Source: Jimgerdemannia flammicorona
Lineage: Eukaryota
Assembly: GCA_003990765.1 (NCBI GenBank)
Contig: RBNJ01000122.1
Span: forward strand, 1 to 40,448
Direction of reading: 5' to 3'
DNA: 40,448 nucleotides
The stretch's first letter is position 1, and each line of letters opens with the position of its first letter. This document shows positions 3,975-30,545 of the stretch, in pieces. The notes beneath the pieces are model-generated. The model was not told the origin of the DNA, searched no databases, and saw only the letters and a list, made by a program, of their open reading frames with translations. The position numbers and the translations under genes are program-made.

Positions 3975-4484
3975 TTTAGTTATTATTATAGTATTTATAG
4001 ATATCTTCAGTATCTATATCTATATTATAAACTTCTTTAGTATCTGAATCACTCTATTCTAGTAACTCTTTCTCTTTCTCAGAGAACAGAACTTCAACAT
4101 AATTGATAATGCTCAGATAGGTGAGCATAGTCATTATCTGGAAGTTATTTAGAGAGAACTAGACCTGAGTCAATACTGTAATATTTCATTTATAGATTGT
4201 ATAAAGTCTATTTATAGCAATAGTATTCTTTTATAACAGATTAGTAATATAGTAGATATAGATCTGTTCTGGAACTAGAAAGTTTTACAGTAGTTGATCA
4301 ATTATATAATAGGTCTGCAGTTGATGAATCTGTAGTAAGTATTTTGCTAAGATAAAGTTTCCTTAATATATCTGAATTTATTGAAAATAGGTTTCATTTC
4401 TTAGAACTGAGGCAAGAGAACTGATAGGGCTTGAAAAGAACTGAAGATAAGAGTCTGAAGATACTGGTCAATTCTCTGATTCAT
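3975..4484 (-). pseudogene. Decayed accessory ORF between integrase and 3' LTR (family 1)
   Basis: ATG at 4484, just after the integrase end. Hand translation gives MNQRIDQYLQTL...LQTYYIIDQLL...AINRLYTIYK*NITVLTQV*FSLNNF with stops and one frameshift. Motif order matches the LTR-borne ORF of element 2. Confidence 0.5.
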
Positions 4485-4489
4485 TATAT

Positions 4490-5270
4490 GAGTGGTATAT
4501 ATATCTTGAGATAATTGATATAGACTGAGGTTCTCAGAGTATATCTATCTATACTTCTTAAATAGATGCTAGTTTCTCTGATATTGTATACAAGATAAGA
4601 TTCTTCTTATTTAGGCTCTAGTTTGGCAGCAAAGTTTATTTTAATTATACTTCTCCAGACTAGTACTTTATCTCTAATTTTGATCTTCTAATTCTTTTAC
4701 TTCTAATTATAGTACTTCTTTTGTCTTTTCTGAATCTTGATTATCTAGCTCAGGCTTGATTATATAATTGTTCTGCTTTTTTAAAAAGGTCTCTGAGGTT
4801 CTTATGATCAGTAGTTCTGGTTCTTTTAATGAATATCATCTTGAATGACTTTTGTTTAGTAGAAGTAGTAGAGATATTTTAAATTTCCTATAGGATCTTA
4901 GATAAGTAGAGATTCTAGTTAGTAAGATTAACTTAGGCAAGTTCTTTCTTAATAGTCTAGTTTATTCATTCTATTATACCATTAGTTTGAGAGTAATATA
5001 ATGTGGTTTATTTGAAATAAATCTTGTAAATTTGAGTATAACTTTTTTTTTTTTTTTTTTTTAAGTATAACTTATAATATAATTATTGATAAATTCTATA
5101 TCTCAGTCAAAAATGAGTTCTTCTGAAGATCTATATCTGAGTGTGAGATTATGAAGAAGGTCAATAATAATCAAGGCATCAGTAATTTTCATTAAAAAAG
5201 CTTTGAGCCATTTAGTTAGATATTCTATAAATATTAGAATATATTTATTTCTTCTTAGTATACTGACAGA
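4490..5270 (-). pseudogene. Gypsy integrase remnant (catalytic core plus GPY/F module)
   Basis: Translates RNKYILIFIEYLTKWLKAF...RYRSSEELIFD*DIEF (rve core) and KIRDKVLVW...KLEPK*EESYLV (decayed KWEGPY). Confidence 0.85.
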
Positions 5271-5284
5271 TAGTGCTTACAAAA

Positions 5285-5680
5285 AACTGAATCAAGTCAA
5301 ATTGACTCTTAATTCAATTTGATACAAACTGAATCAAGGCTCAATTCAATTCAACTTTCATTTGATTTGACTTTCATTTAGTTTGGCTTTTGTTCAATTC
5401 AATTCAGCTTTTATTTGATTTCATCTTCATTTGATTTGACTTTCATTCAATTTGACTTTCATTCAATTCAACTTTCATTCAATTTGGCTTTTGTTCAATT
5501 TGATTTGGCTTTCATTTAACTTTAATTCAGTTTGATGTGAGTTATGTAACTTTCAGAATCACATACTTTAAGGATACCTGAATTAAATCAATTTGAATTA
5601 ATTCAATTTGGTTCCAAACCTGAGTTGAATTAATTCAATTCAGTTCTAAACCTGAATTGAATTGATTTGATTCAGTTCAC
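5285..5680. repeat. hAT subterminal tandem repeats (TTCAATTTGACTTTCA-like, probably ancestral TTCGATTCGGCTTTCG)
   Basis: Many short units alternate TTCAA/TTTGA/TTCAG/TTTGG at the same positions, as expected if CG decayed to CA or TG. Confidence 0.7.
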
Positions 5681-5869
5681 ATGCTATACTACTCATAATA
5701 AACACTCTCTTCCAATACATTAACTATATCAGAGGAACTGTTTTTACTACCACCACTACCTATAGAAGATACTAGAGCAGCCTTGGTGTCAGTAGATATA
5801 ACTTCAACAAGTACAAGTATAACAATCTAGTATAGAGAGAAGAAAAGAAAAAGGAAAAGAAAAACTATA

Positions 5870-7810
5870 TGAATGCTCTGAGATCTGGAAAGAATTTACA
5901 AAGATAGATAAAAATAGTGAAATGTAATCACTGTTTAGCAATATATAAATTTATAGATAGTTTAACAACAAATATGCAGGACCATTTTACTCAGAGTCAT
6001 AAAGTTAAATAAGTAGGAGTAATGGATTTATTTCTTTTACAAGTATTATTAATTTACTTTATCTTTTTTTTTTTTTTTTCTATTTTATTTATTATTACTT
6101 TAAATTTTCTTATTATAATAATAGTCAAAATTTAATGCACAATTATTTCAAGAGAAGTTTATTCACTGGATTATTTAGGATAATCAGCCTTTCACAGTTA
6201 TTGAAAATTCAGAACTGAGAGATATTTTTTACCTTTTGAAATTAGATATTACTATTCCTTCTACTGAAATGATTCAAAATGAAATCAGATCAACTTTCAA
6301 ACAAAGTTAGAATGCCATCAAAATTAAACTACAGATAAATCTTAATAGTTCAAATCTTAATTCAAATAATCTGAATTTAATTTAATTCTAATAATCTAAA
6401 TCTCATTTAATTTATTGGAAACTAGAATATACTAGATCAAATATTCTTTACTCTTGATACATAGATATTGCTGAATATATATGTATTTCTTAGAATTAAT
6501 GTACATTGAATCTATCAGAATTGACAACTCAATTCTATATTGATTGATTTTATTGAGCTGTCAGGATCTCACTTAGGTGAAAATCTTACTAATACCTTCT
6601 TGAAGTGTATTAAAGACTTTAGCATATAGACAAAAATATATATTTTTCAAAAAGAGTATTTTCATACTTTCAGATTATTGTTTGATATTTAAAAATTGTC
6701 TTATATTTTAAATTATTTACTTTAGGTATTGGTTATAATAATAGATAATACAATCAATAATAATGTTTTATTTCAAATAATTCATGAGGAGTTCAATTAT
6801 ATCAGTCTAAATCATCCATCAATACAATATATATAATGTATGGCTCATATCATTAATCTGACTGTTCAGGATTTTTTAATCTGTCTGAAGGCTGATCAAG
6901 ATACTTTTAATATAACTGAGGGTAGAGAAATTTCAAAACTTTGAATGATTGTTATAAAGATTCAATCATCTTTACTGTATCAAGAGAAATTTGTTAAGAA
7001 GTATAAAATATTTAGACTCAAACCAAAAGAACTTATTTTAGATATCAAAACTTAATAGAATTCAATATATTCTATGATTGAGTGGGCCTTAGAATTTTCA
7101 GATATAAGTCTTTTATTCATTTTTAAATTTGATTCAAAATTTGATTCAAAATTTGATTCAAATAATCTAATAAATTTATTTTCTATAATATATAGCCTTT
7201 AACTGCAACTGTTATTATAGACAAAGACTTAAAAAAATATGCTATTAGGAGCCATACTTGGGAAATATTGAAAGACACTATGGAAATTCTAAAGAGCTTC
7301 AAAATGGCAACAGATCTTGCTGCCTGAGAAAAATATCCAACAATCTATTCTACTGTTCTGATTTACAATTTCTTACTGAATATGTTGGAAGAGCATGATG
7401 AGAAGATTCGAAAAACTACAGATGAGCAATTAAATACTACTGGAGAGTAATTGAATACTATTCATCTGGTACTAATGGTGACTATTGATAAGTTGAAAAT
7501 ATATTATTCAATAACAGATATTCCAACTTATTATATTGATACTGATAAGTAAAATTTTGAAACTTAAGAACTATATGAATTTTACATTTTAAATTTTTAC
7601 ATTTTCAATTTATTTTTCTTTGAATATACCAGTACTTGACCCCAGACTTAAACTATCATATTATATATCTCATAAATGAGAGTCTGAATGGGTTGAGACT
7701 GTCAAGAGAGCTGTTTATATAACTTATGATGAAACCTATGCTCCTCTCCCTGGATCAGTTTATTAAGAACAGTCTAATATTATGGATACTGAAATCAATG
7801 ATATTGATAC
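5870..7810 (+). pseudogene. hAT transposase pseudogene (BED zinc finger plus DDE core), intron-containing, C-terminal dimerisation domain missing
   Basis: SEIWKEF...KCNHC...TTNMQDHF...H (BED finger); WII*DNQPFTVIE; FTLDT*I (DAWTS); SHLGENL; CMAHIINL (CxxH); DIKT**NSIY (DVxTRWNST); EKYPT; LDPRLK. Many premature stops. Confidence 0.9.
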
Positions 7811-8239
7811 ACCAGAGTAGAAAAGAATATTAAGCTTACAATCTCCTAAAAGTAGCTTTAGAGTAGATATTTCTCCTAAGTGTTCTGGATCAAGTGGCTC
7901 TTGGCAGATGTATCCCTCAAAGTATAGTAGGCAGACTTGTCTTTTGCTTTTTGGTTTCAATTTTTGACTGAGGTTTATTCACTCTTATCTCTGGGATATT
8001 TTATACAGTTATGGTTGCTATCTGATTACTATTTGACTAACTATAAAATGCACAGTAATGCTATTTTGAAAAGAGAGTGACCAGGTGTGTCTGATAGACA
8101 CAGGTGTATCCTTAAGACAAACCCAATTTGGTACCTTACTAATTATAAGTGGTGGCACATGTGGGTAACTAGGTATGGGTAACTATGCTATACTGAGTAT
8201 TCATGTCATCTGGCTATACTATGTTATTTGCTTGTCACA
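7811..8239 (-). repeat. Truncated 5' LTR of family-1 Gypsy element
   Basis: Aligns to 3446-3935 (ACCAGAGT...TTATTTGCTT(G/A)T(C/T)ACA). Followed by TSD CTAG. Confidence 0.8.
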
Positions 8240-9312: not shown

Positions 9313-9361
<49 letters not shown>

Positions 9362-10867
9362 CATACCTTGTTGCCGATGATGAGATTGAGAAATCCACCA
9401 AGCCAGCAATGAAAGACCGGTAAGCTTCGTGGTTTTCAATTGATCCGATGTGCTGGACTTTGGTGATTTGTTGTCGACAATGTATCGGAGATGACGATGG
9501 TCAGCCTCGTGGTATCTTCGTCATATTTATCTCGAACCGGCCTCGATATGAGCTGTTCGTTCCTCTGGCGTTTCCGATGGTTATGTCATCCCGTTCTCCA
9601 TTGCATGTAGGCTTTTTCGTCGCCTTTGTCTTGCGGGTGAGGTTTTGCGAGGGAGGTTTGCGCGAGGGGTTGGCGAGGAGGAAGGCTGAAGGAGAAACTT
9701 GGCAGAGTAGAATGAGACTTTGGTGAGTTACAATAGAATATTTTGAGGTTCGTTGGCAGAGGAAATACCGGGCTGGGTTGGAATACAAGTGCCGTGCTAA
9801 ATTCTATGCAAGTCAAATTCAAAATACAAGCGAAGTGCTGGTTTGGAATGGGGCGTTGTACAGCCGTCCAATCAATTAATTGGGTCTGGTTGGTCAAATG
9901 TCTTTAACGGAACACTGGCAGTATCGGCTCGACCGCTTGCTAAACTTCCATGCTTGCACATCCGTGCCTTGCTGCCTTACCGGGACTGTATCGCTGCTCA
10001 TATCGTTATCTATTGCCCGCTTCGTTGACATCATCTTTCTTCTGTACTATTGGGTCTACCTCCCATCTATTTTTCGCATCGATTGTTTTGCTTCAGACTT
10101 GCATCTGCTATTGACAATAATCCTACCGCCACGGGTCACGACTATTGCGGGTATCGAGCTATCCGTCTGCTTCACTGGAATCAGTATCTGCATCACACCT
10201 ATAAAAATATATTACATTGATTCAAGCACGAGCCACATCGTCGTCGCTTGCGACCGACGATCGAATTTTTCTTTACTTCTATACTTTTATTCATTGCTGT
10301 GCTTCGATGCAACCCATGAGTCATCCATCTTGTGCAACTTTTCTTCTAATATTAATTTACCGTTTATAGTCTAGGGATCGCCGGTCGCAAGTGTCGTCAG
10401 CGTAGCCTATGCGGTCTTGTTTTTGTTTCTTCAGCGATTCATCCTGGGACTCCAGATCAGTTTTTTATTATTTGCATTCTGGGTCTCGACGTATTTGTCC
10501 ATCGTAACGTTGAGCAGTGTAACCCCCAACACATGGAATCGTGTCACGCATTCGCCGGCAGCTTGAGCACACATAATTGTCAGGTTTTAACCTGAACGAT
10601 ATCAACTTTAATCATAGTCCGCGACTATCAGGTAAAAAAAGCGCATATAAGCAAGCGAAAAAACCAGAAATAAATGTGGCAATTAGGTAAACAAGCCAGA
10701 ACCGCTTGAACCTCAACAGATGCGCCAAACATGCCAATAATGGCCAAACTCTAAAACGTGAGCATCTTAATTAAAACAAAACTGTTGACAATACTGGAAA
10801 TGGCGTGGTATAGAATGTGATAAGTTGAAGTGAAAGTTAATGTCCAATCCTCGGCGAGGTTTCTACC

Positions 10868-11797
10868 CTAGGAAAAAAATTCCATTTTCTCTTCATTGTC
10901 ACCATAAGCTTGAGGAAGAAAACAGTGACGGTATAAGCACCCCCCATGATAGCCAACGTGGAGGTCAGGATGTCCAAAACAATAATATAAGGCGAAGCCC
11001 ACACCAGAGTACACGAAACGCACGAATAGATCGCTGGGATGACACCAAAATGGTTGAGGTCGTCCGCGATGTGTTGTTAAGAAACAAATCCATATCCTGA
11101 ACTTGGAGCTAGAATTGTCGTAGCACGCCAAGTCATCCGAATACCAGTAGTAGAGGCTGTTGACAATTTGTAACGAAGTGATTTTGTTTGCGGGGGGGTC
11201 CCCACACGTATAATTCTGGCCACTCCTCAGCAGCTGGGAGAACTTCTGAACGACCAGCACGCCCAGCGAATCGCCGCTGCTCGTCGCGTTTTGCAGCATC
11301 GGAATACTATCCACCGTCTTTACCACGTTGAGCCAGATTGGGGAGGGCGGCGTCGTGGTGCTGTTGGCGCACGAGATCCGGTATTGCCATTCTTGCAACG
11401 GGACGGTGAACGGGAAGCCGCGGACAAAGACCCAGTTTATCTTGCAATTGGAGAGTGGCATGCCGGTGTATTGTAGATCGGATAGGAATACATATGTGAA
11501 TACCGAGGTTGAGAAGGTTTCGCCGATCGTGAAAAGTTTATTTTCACATCTCGCTTATATGTGTGGGGAGTAATGTAATGTTAGTCGATTTTAGATAGCA
11601 GCAGACCGTTGAAAAGCATATTGTTGTATGCGTACCTGGATCGTACGTATCCCTGAACTCAGAGGTGCAATAAGGGACCTTCCCCTTAGTTGCAACCACA
11701 AACGCTGCGGTGCCCACGAAAACGGCGACGAGAATGAATATCCCCAAGAACGAAATTCCCAATGGGAACTCCCGAAAGATGTTATAATTAAACTCAT
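10868..11797 (-). pseudogene. Two-TM membrane protein gene with Cys-containing extracellular loop, copy A (one intron ~11559-11636), frameshifted
   Basis: Inverted paralog of 38245-39205. Intron GTACGC...CTAAC...ATAAG. Relative to copy B it has a 13-nt deletion after the ATG, two 1-nt deletions near 11070-11102 and a 10-nt deletion near 10900. Confidence 0.7.
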
Positions 11798-13619
11798 TTA
11801 CGGAATTTTTGAGAGAGAGCTAATACTCAGTGTGTGTCGATTTACTGTCCTGCCTACGTGCAGTAAAAACCACAAAGATAGCATCTGCTGAGGTTCTATA
11901 CTGCGAAATTAAAAGAGGAAAAAAGAAAATAAAAGAAAACCGTAATTGTTTGGGAAGGCTCCGGAAAAAAAAAAAAAAAAAAAAAAAAAAAGGCCGATAG
12001 AATAATTTTCAAAATTGTCTACTGTAGTGATAACCTTATTCTCAGTTGAATGGCGTCGAAACCAATGGGGAAATGTCGAGACAGGCCAGACCAATGTTCG
12101 AAGGCTTACAGTCCCGTGCTGCACTTTCGATCTTTCAAATGGTCCGCGTCGAAACTTTCTGTGGTCGCGAATACTGGAGCCAACTCAGACTTCGCGAGCA
12201 GGTTTAGATATTTGTTACTTAACGGACCACTTTGACAAACAAACAGAATGCCTAGGGAGTGAATGCATTGAGACTTCTCTACTGTAGAAATTACCCTTTC
12301 ATTGAATACACAGTTTTTACTCACGTCCTGTAATCTCTTCTGTACCCACGAAATAGCAAAGCTCATTTGAGCAGCGAAAAGAGCCGGTATCAATTACATA
12401 AAAGATATTTATGGTATGATTGTCAGGTTGCATTATAAACAGATGATGGCGAAAAGCCTGGGACCATGTTTGTGCGTCAGCTTTAAGATAGCAAATCAAT
12501 TGACCCATAAGGAGCATCTGCTGCGGTCCCATACGGCGGAATTCTTATATTATTATTATTAAAAAAACAAAAAAAAAAAAAAAAAGAGCAAACCAGCTCC
12601 AACACCATGATTTGGAAAGGCTCCAGCAGCAAGTAGGACAATATAATAGTTTGCACAAGTGTCTAATGTATTGGTTACCTTATTTCCAATTGACAGCGAC
12701 GTTCTGAAATGGTGAATCGATGTCGAATCGAATATGGCAAAGCAACTGCTGCGGCAGTGGCAACAACACTTAAACAGAAGTCACAGCCTTCCGAAATCAG
12801 TCATAGCGTTCTTGAAATGGGACAAATAGATTATGGCAGCGGACCCAAAACTTGCTACGGGACCTCTTGGTGACGACTATCATTGGAAGCCAAGAGAAGC
12901 CCTGAACCCCGAAACTTGCTAAGAGACACTTGACATTGGAAGCAAAGAGAAGTTCCGAACGTTCTGGAATTCTTAAGTATATATTGTGGCATGCGGTTTG
13001 TATCTCTAGTTGCTTCAAGCACAGCTCAATGTGCCACTTGGTGGAGTGCATGGTATATGACTGAGTGCATTTGCAACAGTTGCGATTCAATGGTCACATG
13101 ATTGGTTTGTCCAATTTGTACAGTGGAGGCTCGGTTGTTTAGTGGTCAATGAATTTTCCTAGTGGCGAATTACTTCTTGAACATATATGGTTTGTGGCGC
13201 AGTGGGTAAAGGGGAACTCGTCCGTCTGACTTGTTAGGTGAATGACGACAGTTGGGCTGGCTTTCCTAAGCTAAGTATCCTTGGGTTCCTTGGCTGGGGT
13301 CTTAACACCTCGAATGGCAGTTGGTTCTGAATACATGGCAGTCAGATCGAATGCACGATGGTTGGGCTGGTGGGATCTTGGTAGCAGTTGGTGGTTTTTT
13401 GTACAGCTTTCCTTTAGCGGCAGGTCTTTAAACTGAACTGAAGGGCTTTTCGTGTGGCTTTCCTTAGTGGCAAATCTTGAATGTTTTCCATGGCAAGAGA
13501 AAATTCTTTAACTCAAATCTCGAGTAATTGTTGCTCTAGTTATCTTGTTCTCAGAATTTATCTGGTCTCTTGGAGGCAGTGAGGTTTCTCTGTAATCTTT
13601 TTTACTTTTAAACACAAAC

Positions 13620-13662
13620 TGACTGAGGTTTATTCACTCTAAAATATAGGGTTATTTATACA
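13620..13662 (-). promoter_or_regulatory. LTR TATA box closely followed by AATAAA poly(A) signal
   Basis: Minus strand reads GTATAAATAACCCTATATTTTAGAGTGAATAAACCTCAGTC. Versions of this cassette recur in the other LTRs. Confidence 0.6.
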
Positions 13663-13869
13663 AATTTGCTAGTTATGGGGGGAGGGCTAAGGTATACTAT
13701 GTTGTAGTGGTTTAATTGCTGAAAACAGGTGTGACAATTGTTTGCGCCAAATTGGGATAAGATGAGTGCTAGTGCTGGATATGGATGTTGTGGGTGGTAT
13801 TGCTGAAAACGGGTATTGCTGACTTGCTGACAAACGTTGGCTGACTGGACTAAGAAAATGGACGTTGGA

Positions 13870-14796
13870 TCACTGAATAGTAAAGTACCCTTCATCAGTG
13901 ATCCAATCATCTTGCTGGGTTGTGACTTCTTCATCCCGTTCTTCAAAGGGTGGGAGCACTAGCCAGGAGGTGAGGGGGTAGAATTGTGGCCAATCAACTT
14001 TGATGACATTCTCCAACCCTTGGACTGCTTGAAGGCAGACAGAGGATTGGTAGATTCTTTGTTCCTCCTCTTCTTCTTCCTCAGATCCTTCAGTTTCTGT
14101 GTTGGTAGGGACTTCTGGGACTTCTTGATTTGATTCCCAAATAATGAGGTGTAAATTGTAGCTGACAGGGTGGTGAGTAGTTAGGGTTGCTCCAACAGGT
14201 GTTGTAATAGTAATGGGTGGTCCTTCAAAGATTTCCATGAGACTCATTAGGTGACCTTGATGGTTGTCTCGGAGTGGAGTAGTGTGAAAGCCTGGTTGAG
14301 TGGGCTTGGTTTGTTGGCTTCCTACAGTGACCTGGTTACTACCAATAGAGTCGGCTACTTCTGATTCTATCCAGTCTGCATCTTCAGTTGAGAGACAGGC
14401 AAGACTTCCAGCAGTCACTCCTTATAAGTGTGCTATAGCCCAGAGAATATGGCAGAAGATTTGGTGGATACGGAGGGCTCTCTTGATTAGCTGGCTGATG
14501 GTTAACATTTTGGCAATGAGGTCTTCCTGGTCACCTTCTTGGGTTTCATTATGAAGGCGGTGTCCAATTTCGTAATCATGCCAGAGGGTTATTCATTCAG
14601 TGGTATCTTTGAGCTATTGGGTCATTATGTACTGGTAATTGATGAAGTGTCCAAGGTCCTCGGTGTAGAAGTTCAGATGTTCAGAGGTATCTGGGTGCTA
14701 AATAGCCTTCTTGATAGCTTCAAGGATTAGAGTCTTTGGGCCAGGCAAGGGGGAAGAGTGGTGGGAGGTCTGGTTAGAGCGGCAGATAGGAGGCAT
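13870..14796 (-). pseudogene. LTR-encoded accessory ORF (308 codons), copy in 3' LTR
   Basis: ATG at 14796 is in frame with ORF-track 13870..14418. Only TAG/TGA/TAA point stops interrupt it. TATTTAAAG lies at 14849-14857 upstream. Confidence 0.7.
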
Positions 14797-15002
14797 TGTG
14801 TGGTGGGTACTTGTTCTTTGGTGCTGATTCCTGAGGCGGAGTATGGTTCTTTAAATAATGTAGTCTTCCTTTTGGCTCAGATTATCATTGCTCCTTTTGG
14901 GGAGATCACCTAATGGGTCAGGCTGTCTATTTGATTGTCATGCCATTATGTTGTCTGATCTTAGCAGTCACTGGTACTCTGTTGTCAATTGCGTACGTCA
15001 CA

Positions 15003-15012
15003 TCTACCCCTT
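15003..15012 (-). other. Polypurine tract (AAGGGGTAGA) abutting the 3' LTR
   Basis: Purine-rich run immediately 5' of TGTGACG on the minus strand. Confidence 0.65.
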
Positions 15013-15326
15013 GCAAAATTAGAGCTGTCCTCGGTGGTGAGGGTTACACAGAGTTGGGTGGTCTTAACTTCAGGGACAAGCAGAATGTTGGCGCATTTGT
15101 GAGGACTGGCCATCCTTTCTAGGGCGAGGGCTCCCATAGTTGTGGCTGGGGGTTCGAACCCATCAGAAATAGTATTTCTTGTAATCCGAGGCAATTTCTT
15201 AGTAACAATGTCTGTCACATGGATGGGCTTGAGTCTGGTTCCAATATTGTTGGCTTTCTTGAGTTCTGAGTGAAATATCTGTCATATCTCCAGCAGAGAT
15301 GACACAGATAGAGTGAACAGGATTGT

Positions 15327-16420: not shown

Positions 16421-16619
16421 CACCATCGCCTTCTTGGAATTTCTTGAAATTCCTTTGGATAAACAACTTGTGGGCTGGTTGGATTCCTTTCTTGAAGCTT
16501 TTATAGTGCAGACTCCAGGTGAGGGTGAGGCACAATTCTTGGTTCATTTGGGTGAGCAGGAAGCAGCCTTCTCTTGTGGGGGCTCCTTCCCTTCTTGTTA
16601 GTTTTGCAGGATTCTTGAC

Positions 16620-18444: not shown

Positions 18445-18855
18445 ATTGGTGCTTCCAAAGCCTCCTTGTTCTCTGTTGGTATCTTCTAGTTGGTCTACCT
18501 CTTGAATGGTCAGCTGTGATGTCTTGATAAACAGGATTTGGCAGATGGCTTCCATAGGACTGAAGAATTGGCTGATTCTACTAGAATTGTAGATAATGGC
18601 CTTCAAGGGACCTCGGTAGTCCTGATCGATGACTCCTCCTTCTACTGTGACTCCTTTGGTTGCCAATGAGGATCTTGAGGCCAATTGTCTATAATGCCCA
18701 GGTGGTATAGTGAGTGCAATCTGTAGGTCAAAAATCCTGGTACTTCTGGGTCGGATTCTTGCTTGGTAGGGGAGGCAGAGGTTATAACCAACTGATCCTT
18801 CTGTTTGTGCAAGAGGTGGCTGTGCCCAGGGTGAAAGCAGCTTGACCTGGATAAT
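18445..18855 (-). CDS. dut: Trimeric-type dUTPase domain within the pol polyprotein
   Basis: All five motifs in order: GSVGYNL, LASRSSL, GGVIDQDYRG, ICQIL, REQGGFGST. Same frame as protease and gag. Confidence 0.93.
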
Positions 18856-18859
18856 TGGT

Positions 18860-19974
18860 TGAGCTTTGAGAAATGGTACTTCAGCTGTTGCCATTGTAGG
18901 TGAGAAGTCCATGCGCTCCAGTTTGAAGAAAGACCAGTGAGCTCCTGTCTTTGAGTTTCTTGTATAATTGAATCCAGTCTTTTCTAGAGGGTCCAGAGCT
19001 TCCATAAGGATGAAGGCAAGATTGATACCTTCTTTTCCTTGATGAGGGCAGTAGTACCAGCGAATGATGGCAAGAACTTCCAATGGTAGGTCCCAGATAG
19101 AGGTCTTGCTCTTGAACTTGCAATCTCCTTCATGGTTGATTTCTTTGCACTTCCTACAGGCCCAGCAAATTCAAGGTTCTTGCAGGGTGGGATCTTTTCT
19201 CTTGACTTGGCTCTTATAGACATCTTTGCTGAGGTGAACATCTCGATGTTCACACCAGTGGCAGGTAAAGGTCTTTCCACAATCACAATATCTCTTCTTG
19301 ACAAAGTCTTCATTTCGCTGTTTGACTTCCCTACTGGTAGGGAATCTCTTCCGATACTTGTCATAGGTGGGCTGTGTGATCTGGAGGGCCCAGGTGATAG
19401 TATAAGAGCTGCTGCTTTCTCCTTCAATGGTAAGGGACTCAAATGTTTGGTGGGTGAGGATCTTCTGTCCTCCCTTATAGGTCTTCTTGAAGGTCTTTGG
19501 GGTTGGAGGTTGTATTCGACCGTGGGATGGTGCTTGCTTCAATTCATCCTTATCATCAATTTCTGGCATTGGAACCTTCTTGAGATCCAGGATTTGGCAA
19601 TTGCTGTAATCATCTCTTGGTGAGTGGAAGCTGATGAAATGTTCACATATGCCTTGACGAAAGGCTCGCATGATCTGATTTTCTACCAGTGGTGGTGGTG
19701 GTTGAGCAGATGGTCCTGCAAACTCAAGTACTGCCCTTGCATTAATGGCTCTATCAATGTTTTCTTCCAGACCTTCAACACCAATAACTCCAATGAAAGA
19801 GTCTTCTTGTTTGCTTTCTTGGTCCCTTAGGGTATTGAAATCACTTCCTAGTTCTTGTAGGAAATTGGCCTTGCTTTCATCCTCAGTAGTAGTGGGGGTA
19901 TCGCCATATCCTTGCCATTCTGTTTCTGAGGCTTGATTTGTTCTTTTGGATAATCCTTTCAAGTCAATGAGCAC
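18860..19974 (-). pseudogene. ~370-aa in-frame insert between protease and dUTPase with Cys/His clusters and an F-box-like motif
   Basis: One frame with a single TGA at 19171-19173. Contains CDCGKTFTCHWCEH, CWACRKCKEINHEGDC and SIWDLPLEVLAIIRWYY. Confidence 0.6.
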
Positions 19975-20320
19975 CTTGTGCTTCTGTCTATGAATGGAGA
20001 AGACCAGGAGTTGTTTCTTGATATCTACATTGGCTCCAACTCAGCTTAACCAGTCAGTTCCCAGTATCAGGTCATAGGAGGTTGCAGGGGTCACGACGGC
20101 TTTGGGTACATTGAGGCAGGCCTTTCCGACTTGAATGGGAATGTCTCTGACAAGTCCAAGGGGTGTGGAAGCTGATCCGTCAGCCATGATAACTCTTGCT
20201 TTGGTTCCTTCATCTATTCCCCATCCAATTCGCTCCAATATCCTTTGGGTGATGATGCATACTACTGCTCCAGTATCGATGAGAATTCTGGTATTTTCAC
20301 CATGCACTTTTCCATTGGTG
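19975..20320 (-). pseudogene. Retroviral-type aspartic protease
   Basis: ILIDTGAVVCII...MADG...YDLILGTDWL. Confidence 0.93.
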
Positions 20321-20907
20321 AGTCTTGTAGATTGATGTTCATGTCGCTGGCTCTCATGGGCTGTGTGGATAGTGCTAGGTTCTTGAGTGTGTGGTCCTTG
20401 GACTGGAAGTCTCTTGGTATCTTCCTTGGCTTCTTTCAGGAATTTTTACCTGACCTCTGGTGCATTCTTGAGGACTTGCTCAACTGTAAGACCAGCATTC
20501 TGTAGGTGGATATGTTTCCAAAGTGAGGCTTCTGCATGGGGCTTGCTGCTTCTTTGGTGTCTTGGCCCCTTGGGGTATAGTCTCTCATTCCTGATGGGCA
20601 TTTCATCAGCTGAAGATTCTATGCTCATATGCTCATCTTCTTCAAGATCTGGCAGGGTAGAGCTGGGGGTTGTCCTAGATGGTCTGGCTTCTGGTTCAGA
20701 AGTATCTCTTCTAACTCGCTTCTCCTGTTCTTGTGGAGTGTCTGAAGAAGAATGGCCATGTCATGGATGCTTGCCTGTGGATATTGTTACTGGCAGTTGA
20801 GGTGGGGGGTTCCTTCATGGTCTTCCTCGTCCTCTGGTCTCTGCGGGGGCAGCTTCCTATATCACCTTGGATGGAAAAGCCTCGAAGTATGGGTAGATGT
20901 CATCTTC

Positions 20908-22809
20908 TTAACCATGGAGCCAGGCTGCTTCTTCTTCCATCTCCTGAGTCTCTTCATCTATCTGAAAGAGATTGACATTTCTGTCATTGGATTGGGTGGA
21001 TTGGTTCCTTGGACAATTCCTCTGGATGTGGCCTTGATTTCCGTAGTTGAAGTAGGTGGGACCATAGGAACCAGTCACTGATGAGACTGTAGTTGCAGCT
21101 GGTAGTGCAGGGGCAGGACCTCTGTTGTCTTGTTGCCGGTAGTCTGGTCTGTTATCATGATGGTAGTCTTGTTGTCTTCTACCTTGGTTTTTCAGCTGGG
21201 CAACTGTGATGGCCAGGTCCTTCATTTGCTTAGTGAGCATTGTCATGGGGTCTTCTTGAACTCTTGATGGTGGCTGCTGCTGTGGTTGCCTGAATGGAGT
21301 CGGATTTGTGGGTGCTGGTCTGTTCTCATAGTTGGCTATCTGGGCTCTAAAGAAGGCATTCTCTTGCTCCATGGTTGTTCCTCAGGTTCTTGGGGTTTCA
21401 GCTTGGATTGGCTCATGATAGCCTTGTACTTATTGTACTGGTCTATAATCTGCTTCCCAACATCCTTGTGCTCTAGCAACTTGCTGTTCAATGTTTCGAT
21501 ATCCCATCCTGATAACTTGCCTTCGGAGTTCTGGATATAAGCCATTGAGGAAGGTAGTTGAGGCTAGAGCCAGTTGGACTGCTGGTTGAAGGTTCACCTT
21601 GATCATTTGAGCTTGAATCTGATGGTAGAAACTCTTGGGAGTTTCATTGGCAGCTTGGCTCATATAGGTCAAAGCCTCCTGTACTTCTTGTTGGCGCTCA
21701 AATCCATTGAACTGGGCATGGAGCCAGGCTTTGTAAATCATGTACCTTGCTACATGATTTCTATCAGGTTGAAGACTGTCATTCAGTTCCTCTGCATGGA
21801 TTCCTCCTCCAGCTTACTTGGCTTGATTATACCTCTGTAGGGCTGGTCCTCTCAGGAGTGACTCCACAATTCTGAGTTTCCTTGCAGCATCCCATTGTTT
21901 GGCAGCTGCTTGAACTTCAATTTCTCCAAAGAATTCCTTGATGTCTTCATTGTCTGTACTATGGAACTTCTGAAGGTAGCTCATGTCTGGCTCATCTTCA
22001 CTATCTGAGTATTGTTCAGGGGTAGGGGATCTGGCAGATCCTCGGAGTAATGGGGAAGGTGGTGGTGCTAGTACTTGATGAACTAGTGGTGCTGGCAGAG
22101 GGCAGTATCTTGGTGAGGGTGAGAGTAATCTGGCTCTTCTAATTAATGCTGGGGTTGAAGTCCTGGGTAGTGGTGGAGATCTTCTGATTGACTGGTGATA
22201 GTGGTAAGGTGTGAGTGACCAGAGTACTGAAGTTCGAGCAACTGATAGTGGGAGTGGACTGATATAACTGATAGTAAGTTCGTCTGCCCCTTGCTGTTAT
22301 GAAGTAGTGAGGTCTTGTTTGCCTTATTGTGGGTTTGTGTCGCTGTCTGGATAATAGTGTAGGTTGAATTTGTCCCTTTGATGGTCTGATCCCCAATTGT
22401 CATCTTGCTCTGATTGATATAGATGGTAGTCCTCTTCTCCTTCTGATGTTTCAAAGTATACCCGGTCCAGTGAAGTGACTCGAGTAACAACAGTAGTTAT
22501 GTAGTTACTTCTGTCTGAGTTCTTCCTATGGATAAGGGTCTGATACTCCTTGGGGATATCCTCTTCTTCTTCTTGGCCTAAGTCTTAGATCTGAAGGGGC
22601 AGTTCTGGTTGTCCTCTGAGTTGTCTCCTTTCTCTTGAAGTCAAACCGTAATCTGGGTCACTTCTTTCTTCTAATTCGGTTTTCTGGCTACTGATGTTGA
22701 ATAGGGTCCTGGCTACTATTCTGACAAGAGTGTGGGCTTTCTTTTCTGCTGAGGAGGGCTGTTGCTGTCCCTGGTTTGGTTGCTGACTTGGTCCTGCTAA
22801 GTTCTCCAC
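20908..22809 (-). pseudogene. gag (capsid plus zinc knuckle) with long in-frame N-terminal extension
   Basis: MSYLQKFHS at 21984; QAANETPKSFY...FLNGLYPELRRQV; knuckle TYFNYGNQGHIQRNCP (CX2CX4HX4C with two C>Y). All segments from 22809 to ~18100 share one frame. Confidence 0.85.
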
Positions 22810-22858
22810 TGTAGATAGCTGGGTTCTTGAGCCAAATGGTAAAGTCTTTTGAAAACTT

Positions 22859-22875
22859 TCCCAGTTGAGCCCCCA
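22859..22875 (-). other. Primer-binding site complementary to tRNA-Pro 3' end
   Basis: TGGGGGCTCAACTGGGA lies 3 nt inside the 5' LTR boundary; compare the MLV tRNA-Pro PBS TGGGGGCTCGTCCGGGA. Confidence 0.8.
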
Positions 22876-22878
22876 AAA

Positions 22879-24981
22879 TGTGGTGTGCAGTTTGTATCTC
22901 TAGTTGCTTCAAGCACGGCTCAATGTGCTACTTGGTGGAGTATGTGGTATATGACTGAGTGCATTTGCAATGGTTGCAAGTTGATGGTCACATGATTGAT
23001 TCGTCTGATTCATACAGTAGAGGCTCAGTTGTTTAGTAGTCGATGAATTTTCCTAGCAGCAAATTACTTCTTAAACGTATATGGTTCATAGCACAGCGGG
23101 TAAAGGGGAACTCATCTATCTGACTTGTTAGATGAATGATGACAGTTGGGCTGGCTTTCCTAAGCTAAGTATCCTTGGGTTCCTTGGCTGGGGTCTTAAC
23201 ACCTTGAATGGTGGTTGGTTCTGAATGTACAGCAGTCGGGTCAAATGTATGATGGTTGGGCTGGCAGGATCTCAGCAGCAGTTGGCGGTTTTTTGTGCAG
23301 CTTTCCTTTAGCAGCAGGTCTTTAAACTGAACTGAATGGCTTTTCATGTGGCTTTCCTTAGCGGCAAATCTTGAACATTTTCCATGACAAGAGAAAATTC
23401 TTTAACTCAAACCTTGAGCAATCGTTGCTCTAGTTATCTTGTTCTCAGAATTTATCTGGTCTCTTGGAGGTAGTGAGGTTTCTCTGTAATCCTTTTTACT
23501 TTTAAACACAAACTGACTGAGGTTTATTCACTCTAAGATATAGGGCTATTTATACAAATTTGCTAGCTATGGGGGGGGAACTAAGGTATACTATGTTGTG
23601 GTGGTTTAATTGCTGAATATGGGTGCGACAATTGTTTGTGCCGAATTGGGATAAGATGAGTGCTGATGCTGGATATGGATGTTGTAGGCGGTATCACTGA
23701 AAATGGGTGTGATAATTGTTTGCACTGAATTGGGATTAGATGAGTACTAGTGCTGGATATGGATGTTGTGGGTGGTATCACTGAAAACGGGTGTTGCTGA
23801 CTTGCTGATAAATGTTGGCTGACCGGACTGAGGAAATGGACATTGGATCACTGAATGGTAAAGTACCCTTCATCAGTGATCCAATCATCTTGCTGGGTTG
23901 TGACTTCTTCATCCTGTTCTTCAAAGAGTGGGAGCGCCAGCCAGGAGGTGAGGGGGTAGAATTGTGGCCAATCAACTTCGATGACATTCTCCAACCCTTA
24001 GACTGCTTGAAAGCAGACAGAGAATTGGTAGATTTTTTGTTCCTCCTCTTCTTCTTCCTCAGATCCTTCAGTTTCTGTGTTAGTAGGGACTTCTGGGACT
24101 TCTTGATTTGGTTCCCAAATGATGAGGTGCGAATTGTAGCTGACAGGGTAGTGAGTAGTTGGGGTTGCTCCAACAGGTGTTGTAATGATAATGGGTGGTC
24201 CTTCGAAGATTTCCATGAGACTCATTAGGTGACCTTGATAGTTGTCTCGGAGTGGAGTAGTGTGAAAGCCTGGTTGAGTGGGCTCAGTTTGTTGGCTTCC
24301 TACAGTGACCCGGTTACTACCAATAGAGTCGGCTATTTCTGATTCTATCCAGTCTGCTATCTTCAGTTGAGAGACAGGCAAGACTTCCAGCAGTTACTCC
24401 TTGTAAGTATACTATAGCCCAGGGAATATGGCAGAAGATTTGGTGGACACGGAGGGCTCTCTTGATTAGCTGGCTGGTGGTTAACATTTCGGCAATGAGG
24501 TCTTCCTGGTCGCCTTCTTGGGTTTCATTACGAAGGCGGTGTCCAATTTCGTAATCATGCCAGAGGGTCATTCATTTAGTGGTATCTTTGAGCTATTGGG
24601 TCATTATGTACCAGTAATTGATGAAGTGTCCAAGGTCCTCAGTGTAGAAGTTCAGATGTTCAGAGGTGTCTGGGCACTAAATAGCCTTCTTGATAGCTTC
24701 AAGGATTAGAGTCTTTGGGCCAGGCAAGGGGGAAGAGCAGTGGGAGGTCTGGTTGGGGCGGCGGATAGGAGGCATTGTGTGGTGGGTACTTGTTCTTTGG
24801 TGCTGATTCCTGAGGCGGAGTATGGTTCTTTAAATAATGTAGTCTTCCTTTTGGCTCGGATTATTATTGCTCCTTTTGGGGTGATCACCTAATAGATCAG
24901 GCTGTCTATTTGATTGTCATACCATTATGTCGTCTGATCTTAGCAGTCACCAGTACTCCATTGTCAATTGCATACATCACA
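22879..24981 (-). repeat. 5' LTR of element 2 (2103 bp; one extra 84-bp tandem unit)
   Basis: Direct repeat of 12985-15002. Extra unit at ~23613-23696 and a 1-nt insertion near 24360. Confidence 0.95.
23848..24775 (-). pseudogene. LTR-encoded accessory ORF, copy in 5' LTR (+1 frameshift near 24360)
   Basis: Homologous to 13870-14796. ORF-track pieces 24317..24571 and 23998..24381 are its two frames. Confidence 0.7.
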
Positions 24982-25371: not shown

Positions 25372-25740
25372 TGTGATGATAGTATAGTCAGATGACATAC
25401 AAAGAACACTTAGCATAGTTACCCTCATAGTTACCCACATGCACCACAATTTGTATAAATAACCAGATATACCAAATTGGGTATATTTTACTGCATATTC
25501 TATAATTATGCAGATAGTAACCAGATAGTAACCATACTTGTATAAAATACCCCAGAGATTTGAGTGAATAAATATTAGTCTGAAAAGTTAAAAAAAAAGC
25601 AAAATATAAGGCTGTCTATAATGAGTATATTGTAATCTTTCTTCAAATATAAGAATAAAGTAATATTCTTATTATAGAACTCTCAGATCCAACTTGTTAA
25701 CAAAAGCAATACCTAAACTCTACTATAATAGATAATTAGA
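25372..25740 (+). repeat. Partial/decayed LTR related to family 1 (right boundary uncertain)
   Basis: Starts TGTGAT after ATAT. Matches the reverse complement of ~7960-8239 (AGTATAGTCAGATGACAT, TAGTTACCCACAT, GTATAAAATACCCCAGAGA..GAGTGAATAAA). Confidence 0.65.
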
Positions 25741-25904
25741 ACTCAGTGTTTTCTTATAAAAACTTAGAACTTAGAGTCAATAGTTAGTTTGATTTTCTGT
25801 AATATATTAATTCTATTAGTATATAGTTTTATTATATCAATTCAATTTAATTAAATTAAATTGGATCTCTAATTTAATTTAAACTTAATTTTTTGAAAAT
25901 ACTA

Positions 25905-26250
25905 AATATCTTTATAACTGAAGTCTGATTATTATTTTATAATTAAAGACTTATAACTATCTATTTATTTTATTTTGTTATCTAGTTGATAAATATCTCT
26001 ATAACTGAAGCCTGATAAATATTCTATTTATTTTATTATTTAGTTGATAAATATCTCTATAACTAAAGCCTAATGATTATTCTATTTATTTTACTATCTA
26101 GTTGATAAATATCTTTATAACTGAAGTCTTATAATTATTCTATTTATTTTATTTATTATTTGGTTGATAAACATCTCTGTAACTAATACTTAATAATTAT
26201 TTTATTATTTATTTTCTAGTTAGTGAATATCTCTATGACTGAAGTCTTGA
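25905..26250. repeat. Tandem array of ~58-bp units (~6 copies)
   Basis: Recurring TAGTTGATAAATATCTCTATAACTGAAG...TTCTATTTATTTTA. Confidence 0.8.
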
Positions 26251-26819
26251 GACTATTTTTTTTTATTATAATAAAAGCTATTTTATTATTTTATTTTATT
26301 AAATATCTCTGCTAATTATAAATTTTAATATAATGTTTTATATATTAGAAGACTTCTTACTAATTGAGTACTGAATAATGCTATCTCTATTTCTGATAAT
26401 TAAAAACTTGAATAGTTATATATACTACATATTGGAGAATTATTAACTAATTACTAAATAATATCATCTCTCTCTCTAATACTACTATTATATTATACAT
26501 ATATATATATATTAATAAGTCTCTACTCTACTGAGATTTCTATTGATAAGTTTTTTTATATTACTAGATCCTCTGCTAAGATCCATTCTTTCACTGAGAA
26601 TTTGGTATTAAATTCTTACCATTCTCTCTTTAAAGTATATAAAAGATATAGTTAGAACATCTAGTCTATTAGTAATCTCTCTCACTTTATCACAATTCTC
26701 TATAGTACTAATACAAAATCCTCAATCAGTATCTCAAGAAACCAGTAGTATCTTAAGGTCTCTTTATTAACTCATATATATATATACTTGATAAAAGTAC
26801 TAAAGTATAGTTCTTTAAG

Positions 26820-27095: not shown

Positions 27096-27206
27096 ATAAT
27101 AATAATTTTTTTTTTTTTCTATAGGTACTAGGTCTCTAATAAAATATCTCTATTAATTGATATATTTAGTCTACTTTTTACTAAATCTATAACTTGATCT
27201 ATATAT

Positions 27207-28734
27207 TGTAACAAACCAAAATGTACTACTTGAATTATAACTTAGCCAGATGATACGAACAATTAGTATACTTACTCAGCATAATGTGACTTCTAGTATA
27301 TCATAGTTACTCATACCTGCCATACTTATAATTAGCCAAGACACTAGATCAGGATTATTTACCTGTATCCTGAGGACACACTCATGTCTTGCAGACACAC
27401 TCATGTCCTGTGGACACACTCATGTCCTGTGGACACACCTGTACCTAGAGGACACACCCAAACATTACCGAAGATAGCAAATCTATAGTTAGCCACATAG
27501 TAACCAGATAGCAACCAACTTGTATAAATTAACCCAGAGACAAGAGTGAATAAACCTCAGTCCAAATTGAAGTGCAAACCAAAGAAGCCTCTAAAGATTG
27601 AGCAATTGGTCTCCTTATTCCCACTCTAGTCCACTTTCTGATACAAAGATTGATTGGTTCGCTTGCCAGATAAGCCTGAAGATTTGTGGCCTAAGTTCAA
27701 GAAGAACTTCACCACCTTTTGAAGAGTAATCTGCTACTTAAGGAATAAGCCACTACATTTTTGATTCACTTGCCAGATAAGCCTGAAGATTTGCTACCCA
27801 AAGTTCAAGGAAGAACTTTGCCGCCATTTCCTAGAAGACCATTGTATCCAAGTTATCCTCTGCCTTCCCAAGAAAGCTGCCTTGATCAAGCCAGTTTCTG
27901 ATGCAACTTTGTAGTAGAGCCAGTCTACGATGTAACCCTGTACAAATGAAGCCAGTCTTTGATGTAACTTTGCCAAGAGATCCTTTCCCAAAGAATTCTA
28001 CCAGTAGTTCATATTCCCAGTTGAAGCTGCCGATTTAGAAGAATCTGTGCCATCCAAGTTATTTCCCAGAAGCCCATCGATTCAGGAAGAATTCACATCA
28101 TCTGCCATTTTTGAGTTATCTGCCACATTTCCAGAAGAACCCTACCAATTCAGGAAGAATCTGTGTCATCCGAGTTACTCAAGTTATCTGAGTTATTGAA
28201 TTATCTGCCTCTTGCGACATCTGAGTTATTTATCATTTTCAGTGAGCTCAAGAAGAATCCACTGTCAGTACTATTTTCAATAATAAGAACTTACGCTGTA
28301 CAATTCCCAGTGAGCCAAATCGAGTTGTCCACCAAATCTGCATAAGGAATACTGCCAAGATCATCCTGCATAAGGAGAACTGCTAAATTGCTAGACTGTC
28401 ATACACAAGGAGGTCGTCATGCTACACAAAGATCGTCGCACTAAGACCATCACCCAGAAATCACATACTTTTGGAAATTACCTCACTATACAAAATTGTA
28501 CCATTCCTAGTTGACCTAAGAAGGAAAGACATGAATCGCTGCTACACCTAGAGAACTGTCCCAATAAGGAAATCACTTACAGATATCCAGCTTTGACTAT
28601 TATACCACTAAATATCAAGGACCTCAGGAATCTTAGAACATTTTGTTGCTTTTTGATAAAGTAACTGGGGGCTCAAGCCAAACTACATCAACTCTCAACC
28701 TTGTAATTTACCTCCATTGAGCCAGCATGTTACA
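27207..28734 (+). mobile_element. Solo LTR (1528 bp) related to family 1
   Basis: Perfect 7-bp inverted termini TGTAACA...TGTTACA. TSD ATAT (27203-27206, 28735-28738). Last ~100 bp match the reverse complement of 3156-3245. TATA/AATAAA cassette at 27521-27562. Confidence 0.9.
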
Positions 28735-29585
28735 ATATCTTTACTAATATATATATCTCTTCTCTCTCTCTCTTTCTTCTTTCTACTTAATAAATTATTA
28801 TAGCAAAATAAATTTAACTATAGTCAATCTTCTATAACTTATATTTAACAAACTTAGCTTTAAACTCAGAAAATAATTATAATATTAACATAATAAGATA
28901 TAAATATTCAATATATATCTATAATTACTGTAGAGAAAACTGAAAATAAGATCTAGTTGATAAAAATTTTAAACCAATAATAAAAAAGACTTAATTTGTT
29001 AGATATTTCTAATATATAATCTAGTTTCTTTCTTCTCAAAATAAAGATGATCTATCTCTCATTTAAGCTTCTGATAAGCAGTCTCTTAATATAGACTAAT
29101 GATGATCTACTTCTTATTTGAGCTTCTGATAAATAGTCTCTCAATATATAGACTTTTATTATAGCTCAGTTAGTAGAAATTCAAAAGAAATAGAGTATAG
29201 ACAACTAAAGTATTCTTGAAGATAAATAGTTTCTCATAATATAGAATTCTATAATAACTTAACTGGTAGTAATTCAGAATAAACAGAATATAGATAATAG
29301 AAATTTTCTTCTAAATACTAATAATTTTCAAGATAATAATCTCAACAACTTTAATAAAAATTCTGAGGATTTATATAATAATGAGAATGATGAAGATTAA
29401 TCTTATACAACTAATAGTAATAATAGTAAATTCTTTGAAGATGTTTTTAAAATAATATCTATATATCTATATAATATTTTATCAATTATATTAATAGTTT
29501 TTTAAGTAATATACTAATACTTATCTAGTAAAAAGTAAAAGACAATATATAAGTAATTAAAATTAGTTTTCTGGTTTCTTTTTGA

Positions 29586-30049
29586 TGTAATATAGTGGAT
29601 GTATAACTGTATAAGTATATTAGATTTCTGTATCTTAAAAATTTGATCTTCTTTGACTTTACAGAGTTCTTGAGATATAGAAGTGGGTGAGTTTGAAGTA
29701 TATCTGTCTGTAGACTTACTAGTTCTTTTACTTTCTCTTTGCTTTAAACTATTTCAATCTGAGATATATTTACTCTAGACACTAGAGATATTTATACAAG
29801 TTTGCTAGCTATAAGGTAGTTAAGTTATAAGTCACTTTTTATAAATATCAAATCTTTCAACATCTGCTAAATCTTTGATGATTGCCAAAATCTTAATATT
29901 TATAAAGAGTTTAACATTTGCTAAAACTTTAATATTTATAAAATGACTGCTATTTGTAAGACTATACTATATTTGAGAATCAGATTTAGGTACTATTATC
30001 AAATATCTATTCTTTTGATTCATATTCCTAATTTGGATCAACTATTACA
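29586..30049 (-). repeat. 3' LTR of element 3
   Basis: TGTAAT...TATTACA, colinear with 35814-36277. Purine tract AGGAGAAAGT is adjacent on the minus strand. Confidence 0.9.
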
Positions 30050-30054
30050 ACTTT

Positions 30055-30545
30055 CTCCTAAATAGGTAATTCATCTCTGAAGTATTCTATTTACTCAAAC
30101 TCCCAAGCTTCTACAATTTATATCTCCTTATACTATACAATTTATATTATTATGTTCTCTTAATAGTATCTTTTGATATATATAAATTCTCTTAGAGCTA
30201 CTTTACAAAAATAGACTAAAGTTGACTCATTCTCTCTGAATAACTTATTAACTTGTTTGGTGATTGTGATCTGAGTATGAGAGAGCTGACACTCTCTAAT
30301 TTAGTCTTCTTTTTCCATCTCTGGTGGTAAGTTTAGTGGCTGTTCCAACTTGAAGTATTCTTGAAACTTAGTCCAGTTCTGATAGGTCTTGAAATATGAG
30401 ATTTATAATAAGTATATCTGAACAATACTCTGGATACTATTAAAGAATTTTTCTATGATCAGTAGCTTGGTAGTGCACCATTGTCTTTTTATAGCTTATT
30501 GTATAGCACTGATGATCTTGAGAGCTGTAGTAGTACTCTATTGAT
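30055..30545 (-). pseudogene. Decayed accessory ORF between integrase and PPT (family 3)
   Basis: Hand translation: TALKIISAIQ*AIKRQ...FQEYFKLEQPL...ITITKQVNKLFRENESTLVYFCKVALREFIYI. Confidence 0.55.

Follow-up and report, generated by a model that had tools for sequence, protein, structure and literature searches.

A probable accessory gene family at the 3' end of decayed Ty3/Gypsy elements of Jimgerdemannia flammicorona, internal in one element and carried within the long terminal repeat in another

Additional open reading frames (ORFs) that lie, sense-oriented, after pol and before the 3' long terminal repeat (LTR) are an established class, designated aORF-3S (PMC7264820). Very few extra ORFs that follow pol have a known role. 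One with an assigned function is CERV of the Ty3/Gypsy element Cer1 of Caenorhabditis elegans: this non-env ORF at the env position is expressed from a spliced mRNA and acts as a regulator of genomic RNA export (PMC10309623). In bdelloid rotifers, ORF3 types have been described as shared among divergent LTR-retrotransposon lineages, several of them with a dUTPase (PMC5408684). Ty3/Gypsy elements bearing a dUTPase are on record from fungi, namely PosPlaTy3-5 of Postia placenta, elements of Phanerochaete and Tmt1 of Tuber, and a figure legend in the same source lists an "additional ORF with unknown function", for which its text gives neither sequence nor position (PMC2864245). We analyzed a stretch of 40,448 nucleotides (nt) from Jimgerdemannia flammicorona (assembly GCA_003990765.1, contig RBNJ01000122.1, positions 1 to 40,448; hereafter the window), in which self-blastn LTR pairs delimit three dead Ty3/Gypsy LTR elements, each on the minus strand.

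An earlier sequence-only reading of the window had proposed that all three Gypsy families carry, after integrase and at the env position, an extra ORF for the same helical accessory protein of about 150 amino acids (aa). We refer to the gene as X and to the stretches in families 1, 2 and 3 as X1, X2 (present as two copies, X2a and X2b) and X3; all of these, and all element features given below, are on the minus strand. Based on the comparisons described here, decayed copies of a genuine accessory gene, distinct from gag, pol and env, are probably present in two of the three Gypsy families; the gene belongs to a family with an X2-type and an X3-type branch. In the full-text literature searched, we found no description of the X protein family, nor of any family of additional ORFs that alternates between an internal position and the U3 part of the LTR.

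A scan of metagenomes for related loci yielded a sole locus with context, contig L001, which holds an almost intact element of the family 3 type. A 1258-aa ORF (L001 positions 843-4619) encodes Gag, protease, dUTPase, reverse transcriptase (RT) and RNase H, followed by an integrase (4516-5838) that lies in a different frame, overlaps the end of that ORF and is interrupted in frame by a single stop (LFTK*VEAG), near 5074-5076. This element also has an intact accessory ORF (5795-6256) of 153 codons with its own ATG, in the +1 frame relative to integrase. The ORF shares 44 nt with the end of integrase (5838), and 40 nt separate its stop from the start of the LTR. Set against this ORF, X3 (30091-30552), a decayed post-integrase ORF of 153 codons, has ATA in place of ATG and eight in-frame stops, and has no indels, the DNA alignment (read from 30552 to 30091) being gap-free over the ORF. 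A tblastn search with the L001 protein covered residues 1-153 on X3 at 55% identity (E 1.6e-42), and X3 is 54-60% identical to the intact proteins P0013-P0015. X3 and the intact L001 ORF show 164 differences, 98 of them G>A or C>T; decay of the X copies is nearly all of these two types, and transitions make up 150 of the 154 differences within the family 2 LTR pair. By these alignments, X3 is a decayed copy of a real gene.

X3 is followed by a polypurine tract (PPT), AGGAGAAAGT, at 30048-30057, which adjoins the 3' LTR of family 3 (29586-30047; paired with the 5' LTR at 35814-36275, 87% identity), and integrase remnants extend over 30512-31799. A sense ORF between integrase and the PPT or 3' LTR is thus found both in X3 and in L001, in exact agreement with the aORF-3S layout as described (PMC7264820), and the X1 stretch of family 1 agrees with it by position only. 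As in the aORF-3S of Athila and Bagy2, the X genes are in sense orientation, downstream of integrase and probably conserved within element families, with no host similarity and no assigned function, whereas the plant aORF-3S described in that source are mostly env-like with transmembrane (TM) segments and X is small, acidic and soluble (PMC7264820).

Family 2 is a single 12-kb insertion, bounded by a 3' LTR of 2018 bp (12985-15002, with the ends TGTGA...CCACA) and a 5' LTR of 2103 bp (22879-24981), which pair at 89-93% identity in self-blastn, the 5' LTR having one additional 84-nt repeat. X2a (13870-14796) and X2b (23848-24775) are found at the same offset of these two LTRs (LTR positions 207-1133, stop codon included). 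X2 begins 206 nt into the LTR, downstream of the PPT (GCAAGGGGTAGA, 15003-15014), which abuts the 3' LTR and hence lies upstream of X2a, and the gene is outside the internal region (15003-22878). The sequence-only reading had taken both copies to follow an integrase; they belong instead to the 3' and the 5' LTR of one element, the second copy of the gene at 23848-24775 being located upstream of gag, and a Pfam scan of 145 minus-strand stop-to-stop pieces found no integrase upstream of X2b. It had also described an extra ORF in each element. No copy in the window is open: stops occur in all four, X2b has a frameshift and X3 has lost its ATG. The env position holds for X3, and by position for X1, between integrase and PPT, and does not hold for family 2, where the gene is inside the LTR past the PPT.

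Read through its four in-frame stops (as X), X2a is 66% identical, at 96% coverage, to the intact 325-aa protein P0001 (E 1.2e-130), one of three matches among 350 candidates in this search. In the reverse direction, phmmer with P0001 gave a single match on X2a (P0001 residues 1-322 at 13903-14796) and two matches in two frames on X2b (24356-24775 and 23881-24363), which has stops and one frameshift near 24360. A family hidden Markov model (HMM) matched X2a and X2b at E 1e-91 and 1e-59. The full-length X2 relatives P0004, P0005 and P0006 are 31-35% identical to P0001; distant relatives of X2 type are intact at 28-37% identity, and the clusters contain additional intact members of 205-331 aa. 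Viral contigs scanned with P0001 and alignment A6 contained no relative. From its sequence relationships, X2 is, like X3, a decayed copy of a real gene. Eight of the 11 X2-type relatives listed with at least 200 aa are on contigs of 1.05-1.6 kb, about the size that a monocistronic mRNA of an X2 gene would have.

Retroelements do transduce host sequences (PMC7264820), and X could in principle be a transduced fragment of a host gene, a passenger without a role for the element. When 1.84 billion representatives were searched exhaustively with P0001, only 10 proteins matched at E<=1e-3, with no larger host family; the gene is intact in members that are 28-37% identical and is present across two element families whose RT-RNase H regions are 43% identical, whereas transduced genes, as described, occur in one or a few copies (PMC7264820). 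We therefore regard a host origin of this kind as very improbable. A duplication of gag was rejected as a source of X, the N-terminal window of L001 Gag scoring 10.7 against alignment A1.

The relationship between X2 and X3 is not visible in the window copies themselves. Compared pairwise and directly, these gave z scores of 0.1-0.5, values matched or exceeded by 145-206 of 500 shuffles (true family members gave z 28), and neither P0001 alone nor the first X2 HMM, run over the six-frame translation of the window, detected X1 or X3 in addition to the X2 copies. The shared order of motifs claimed by the sequence-only reading was thus at shuffle level in direct comparison and marginal for X1; for X2 versus X3 it is supported, only through intact database relatives. 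Alignments of such relatives, two of X2 type against two of X3 type, together with one X3 alignment that included the window copy, were compared by hhalign, giving scores of 32.7, 35.3, 34.2, 29.3 and 27.9 (P 1.2e-4 to 1.8e-3) over 84-119 colinear columns at about 20% identity. None of 110 column shuffles of the X3 alignment reached 32.7 (mean 12.5, sd 2.5, max 20.6), the reversed X3 alignment scored 12.8, and ten 153-aa windows of L001 Pol and integrase used as a control scored 8.6-16.7. The aligned motifs were the three named in the sequence-only reading, the third in every hhalign run, the second in several, its register uncertain by one residue, and the first in one.

Searches of HMMs against sequences gave comparable results in both directions. 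An X3-only HMM run over the six-frame window ranked both X2 copies next after X3 itself, each at its known location and in the correct frame, with i-Evalues of 0.0018 and 0.01. The X2 HMM scored 7.4, 11.3 and 15.9 bits against three X3 proteins, each reached by none of 300 shuffles, and the X3 HMM scored 11.1 bits against P0001 (0/300 shuffles). Profile Smith-Waterman alignment of the intact L001 ORF to the X2 profile gave z 5.8, and that of X2a to the X3 profile z 8.1, with 0 of 150 shuffles reaching the score in either case.

Several results nevertheless weigh against this relationship, and would suit a scenario in which the X2-type and X3-type genes are unrelated orphan ORFs, acquired independently at the 3' end and alike only in the manner of generic small helical proteins. 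The signal is modest: the hhalign probability was just 15-55% and the identity about 20%, the score dropped from 35.3 to 27.9 once more sequences were added, and the register of the WxEY motif shifted by one residue between runs. Most X2 proteins were near zero against the X3 HMM, the five of six other than P0001 scoring -0.3 to 2.5 bits with 3-19 of 300 shuffles reaching these values; the decayed X3 of the window was not recognized by the X2 profile (z 0.05-0.65, no HMM match); and the AF2 models were too poor for a comparison of folds. Independent acquisition is at odds, however, with 84-119 colinear columns that keep the same motif spacing, with a score exceeding all 110 column shuffles, the reversed control and the 10 windows of real proteins, and with reciprocal HMM-to-sequence matches and an independent Smith-Waterman test. 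We consider unrelated origins quite unlikely, and it is probable from the profile comparisons that the X2-type and X3-type proteins are distant homologues.

In family 1, the X1 stretch (3976-4484) is situated between the integrase end and the PPT (AGTGGAGGCTGA, 3936-3947, by sequence reading), a position equal to the internal one of X3. The adjoining 3' LTR (3443-3935) pairs with a 5' LTR at 7808-8239 at 74% identity, and the C-terminal part of the L001 integrase, used as a tblastn query, matched a C-terminal remnant of integrase at 4499-4672 (39.7% identity, E 4.8e-8). The 181 codons of X1 contain eight stops. Whether X1 belongs to the X family must be weighed against the reading that it is an integrase C-terminal tail, an unrelated ORF or non-coding spacer whose motifs arose by chance in AT-rich sequence. 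Consistent with the latter, a database search with X1 yielded 19 candidates, none at E<=1; its pairwise scores were in the shuffle range, and against either family profile alone it gave z -0.3 to 1.6, which is within noise. In a frameshift-aware and transition-aware comparison with the X3 profile, 19 of 150 shuffles and eight of 50 AT-rich windows reached its score. All three frames of X1 are equally stop-rich, at 5-6 stops per 100 codons, and the motifs lie in the integrase frame, the ATG at 4484 that the sequence-only reading had used being in a different one.

A merged core profile of 92 columns, scored with tolerance of C>T and G>A decay, spoke against X1 being foreign to the family. X1 scored 15.0-16.1 (z 3.2-4.0), in the motif frame of the sequence-only reading only; this was reached by 0-6 of 400 shuffles and by none of 156 other AT-rich windows (max 15.5), and, in a frameshift-aware version, by three of 150 shuffles and one of 50 windows. 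The two motif matches are colinear, with a spacing of 33 aa versus 34 aa in the family, and the 564 nt from the integrase end to the LTR in family 1, compared with 465 nt in family 3, would accommodate some 150 codons. In addition, the ATG at 4484 opens a +1 frame with MNQR just before the integrase stop, much as the L001 ORF opens with MANQR. After several tests, the signal stands at a p of about 0.01-0.02, a hint and not a result. That X1 is a further family member decayed beyond recognition would be an even call, and we give an origin outside the family slightly less than an even chance. A protein conserved across divergent families, as was proposed, is accordingly upheld for two families and is not demonstrable for family 1.

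The X accessory-protein family, as defined by P0001, P0004-6, P0010/23 and P0011/24, has a recurrent architecture. X2-type proteins (205-342 aa) start with a proline-rich and basic N-terminus (MPPxR..QT...PLP), continue with a helical core, some 150 residues long, that has WxEYEIGH and AKKIHQIFRHAP motifs (also written WxEYEIGH, AKKIHQIFRHAPW), followed by a DNPDQWLQ..FEGPPI motif, and end in a strongly acidic tail, with a net charge of -11 to -29 after residue 160. Most full-length X2-type members terminate in a DDxxPL(F/I/V)-type motif, acidic and then hydrophobic, and this hydrophobic-tipped acidic tail looks, from its sequence, like a docking or activation motif. Tails in alignment A5 (P0001, P0005, P0006, P0021, P0023 and P0024) include DDWPLFYPL, DDFQPMVLNF, DDDEAPLILNF and DDDGPLFVPH. 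X3-type proteins comprise 153 aa, consisting of the helical core only and ending EAWEFE. The X proteins are acidic (pI 4.6-5.8), and their first 160 residues have a net charge of -7 to +3. AF2 models are all-helical in the core, at low confidence (mean pLDDT 50.5 and 45.4).

Comparison with known domains gave little. Pfam had no match at E<=10 for P0001-P0006, P0010 or the L001 ORF, and none in any X stretch among the 145 minus-strand pieces of the window; for P0014, there was one match at chance level (E 2.5, 8.8 bits versus a cut-off of 27). Profile searches of PDB returned nothing meaningful, the best match being an asparaginase at E 0.26, and the X2 profile alone had no match at E<=1. The ESM Atlas provided no usable match for P0001, and for the L001 ORF it provided heterogeneous small hypothetical proteins only. 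The suggestion that X corresponds to no described domain therefore stood against both Pfam and PDB, where no significant match was obtained.

The post-integrase position, taken alone, would suit a protein resembling env or an extension of integrase of the chromodomain type. We found neither a TM segment nor a signal peptide in the X proteins, the maximum 19-residue hydropathy being 0.38-1.09 and the N-termini hydrophilic, which agrees with the view in the sequence-only reading that X is not a conventional env. Pfam matched no chromo domain in the L001 ORF or in any of the window's 145 minus-strand pieces, and a chromodomain or an integrase tail was ruled out for X3 on the ground that the L001 ORF is separate, in another frame, with its own ATG. 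An env-like or chromodomain-type identity is thus scarcely credible. As for the motifs on which the original proposal was built, all eight strings of at least six residues that were searched occur at the places given for them, all on the minus strand, which had been left unstated. Its reading of the family 3 G>E change at YxIG as G>A decay agrees with the presence of G in four of the six intact relatives covering the position, and one hhalign run has the same register.

The location of X2 within its LTR bears on how the gene would be transmitted. The sole TATAAA in the family 2 LTR (13655-13660, LTR position 1343; equivalent to 23549-23554 in the 5' LTR) stands about 210 nt after the X2 stop, just past tandem repeats of 84 nt (family D9) that lie between the stop and the TATAAA; the 3' LTR has two of these repeats and the 5' LTR three. 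This succession of repeats and then TATAAA is the usual enhancer-TATA layout, and we therefore infer that X2 is located in U3 of the family 2 LTR: it is downstream of the PPT, within the LTR and upstream of a putative promoter core. It counts against this placement that the U3, R and U5 borders derive from one TATA motif alone. The LTR-borne position was observed in family 2 of the window. A relic PPT or LTR start was sought after the X2 stop and none was found. The 84-nt repeats (13699-13814 and 23593-23794) are enhancer-like, and their copy number changed after insertion.

On the genomic RNA, X2-type and X3-type genes both follow integrase and precede R. The branches differ by the PPT, which comes after the gene in family 3 and in L001 and before the gene in family 2. 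Since the PPT follows the gene in family 3, X3 is internal; since it precedes the gene in family 2, reverse transcription copies X2 into the U3 part of each LTR. The plus-strand priming site may have shifted, carrying the gene into U3 and thus into the LTR, and X2 would then be recopied into both LTRs in each round of reverse transcription. The definition of additional ORFs, as described, covers the internal region only, and X2, beyond the PPT and in the LTR, is outside it (PMC7264820). As extra ORFs common to divergent lineages, the X genes resemble ORF3 of rotifers, unlike which they have no recognizable domain, the rotifer ORF3s being recognizable enzymes or env-like (PMC5408684). In families 2 and 3, and likewise in L001, a dUTPase domain separates protease from RT, as in fungal dUTPase elements (PMC2864245).

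A 3'-terminal ORF is out of reach of cap scanning on an 8-kb genomic RNA, and the X protein therefore needs a separate route of expression. For X3-type genes this could be a subgenomic or spliced mRNA, or else translation that is reinitiated at, or coupled to, the integrase stop which the gene overlaps. For X2-type genes, located some 535 nt past the point where the integrase match ends, an internal promoter or splicing would be expected.

Some accessory genes of retroviruses are situated in U3 or extend into it: sag of mouse mammary tumor virus (MMTV), lentiviral nef and the bel/tas region of foamy viruses. X2 resembles these in being 3'-proximal and past the PPT, so that it is duplicated in both LTRs, and in needing its own mRNA; the combination of a helical domain and an acidic tail in X is reminiscent of the foamy-virus transactivator Tas. 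X differs from these genes in that no sequence relationship to them was seen (no Pfam match), its element is an LTR retrotransposon without env, and the X family also occurs internally, before the PPT. No homology of X to the Sag or Nef families was found by Pfam (E<=10) or, for the X2 profile, in PDB (E<=1).

By analogy, CERV would be the best functional model for X. Both are non-env genes of a Ty3/Gypsy element, and CERV, in the account given of it, is likewise without homology outside its own lineage (PMC10309623). Compared by description, CERV differs from X in its size of about 517 aa and in being partly encoded upstream via splicing (PMC10309623). The X protein may act in trans, as a regulator or adaptor whose effect depends on contacts with proteins, in the manner of foamy-virus Tas or Cer1 CERV. 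By the same analogies, it is possible, though less likely than not, that X serves in transcription, RNA export or anti-silencing, and the remaining probability goes to particle assembly, nuclear import or something else; it counts against any such assignment that function is here guessed from composition alone. Direct binding of nucleic acids, which had been listed among the candidate roles, is not favored because the proteins are acidic.

With respect to the remaining content of the window, the internal region of family 2 contains gag and pol, all decayed, as identified by Pfam and by tblastn with L001 proteins. Pfam recovered the order protease (20445-20044), dUTPase (19170-18391), RT (17569-17327), RNase H (17092-16796) and integrase (16547-15333) between the LTRs, and AT-rich ATATAT at both ends of the element is, by sequence reading, a putative target site duplication. 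Pfam domains in family 3 were dUTPase (33700-33326) and RT (33095-32625), upstream of the integrase remnants. In families 1 and 3 as well, a purine tract precedes an LTR whose beginning is of the TGTGAC type. Families 2 and 3 are separated by an AT-rich block, in which fragments resembling the LTR or flank of family 1 (25488-25618, 27304-27571 and 28635-28737) are inverted and represent older, decayed insertions. AT-rich tandem arrays at 5291-5559 and 25926-26273, whose units measure about 16 nt and 58 nt, are within decayed regions.

Outside the elements, an inverted repeat pair of 1.2-1.4 kb (10476-11858 and 38184-40051) is 76-85% identical, has a normal GC content and contains open frames of 148-228 codons without a Pfam match. 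Homopolymer runs of A or T of about 40-75 nt (9315-9360, 39404-39446 and 40298-40375) are found beside repeat copies of this type. On the plus strand, a 260-codon open frame at 1291-2070 has several hydrophobic segments and no Pfam match, and may be an exon of a host membrane-protein gene.

The X genes represent an unnamed protein family kept intact across element families whose RT-RNase H regions are 43% identical, and in two structural positions. These two positions provide a natural experiment on how retroelement genes migrate into the LTR, as with retroviral nef and sag-like genes. We regard as fairly unlikely the wider reading that X is the ancestral third gene of an entire lineage of dUTPase-bearing Ty3/Gypsy elements, a fast-evolving regulator similar to Rev, Tas or CERV, or an anti-silencing factor, moved between internal and U3 positions by relocation of the PPT. 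If that were true, every LTR of the LTR-borne branch, including the 5' LTR and presumably solo LTRs, would carry the gene next to and upstream of its core promoter, and LTRs could be dispersed, independently expressed genes supplying the factor in trans. For annotation, the long LTRs of X2-bearing elements should not be presumed to be non-coding. If X regulates transcription, export or silencing, it would offer a handle on the high copy number of these elements in their host.

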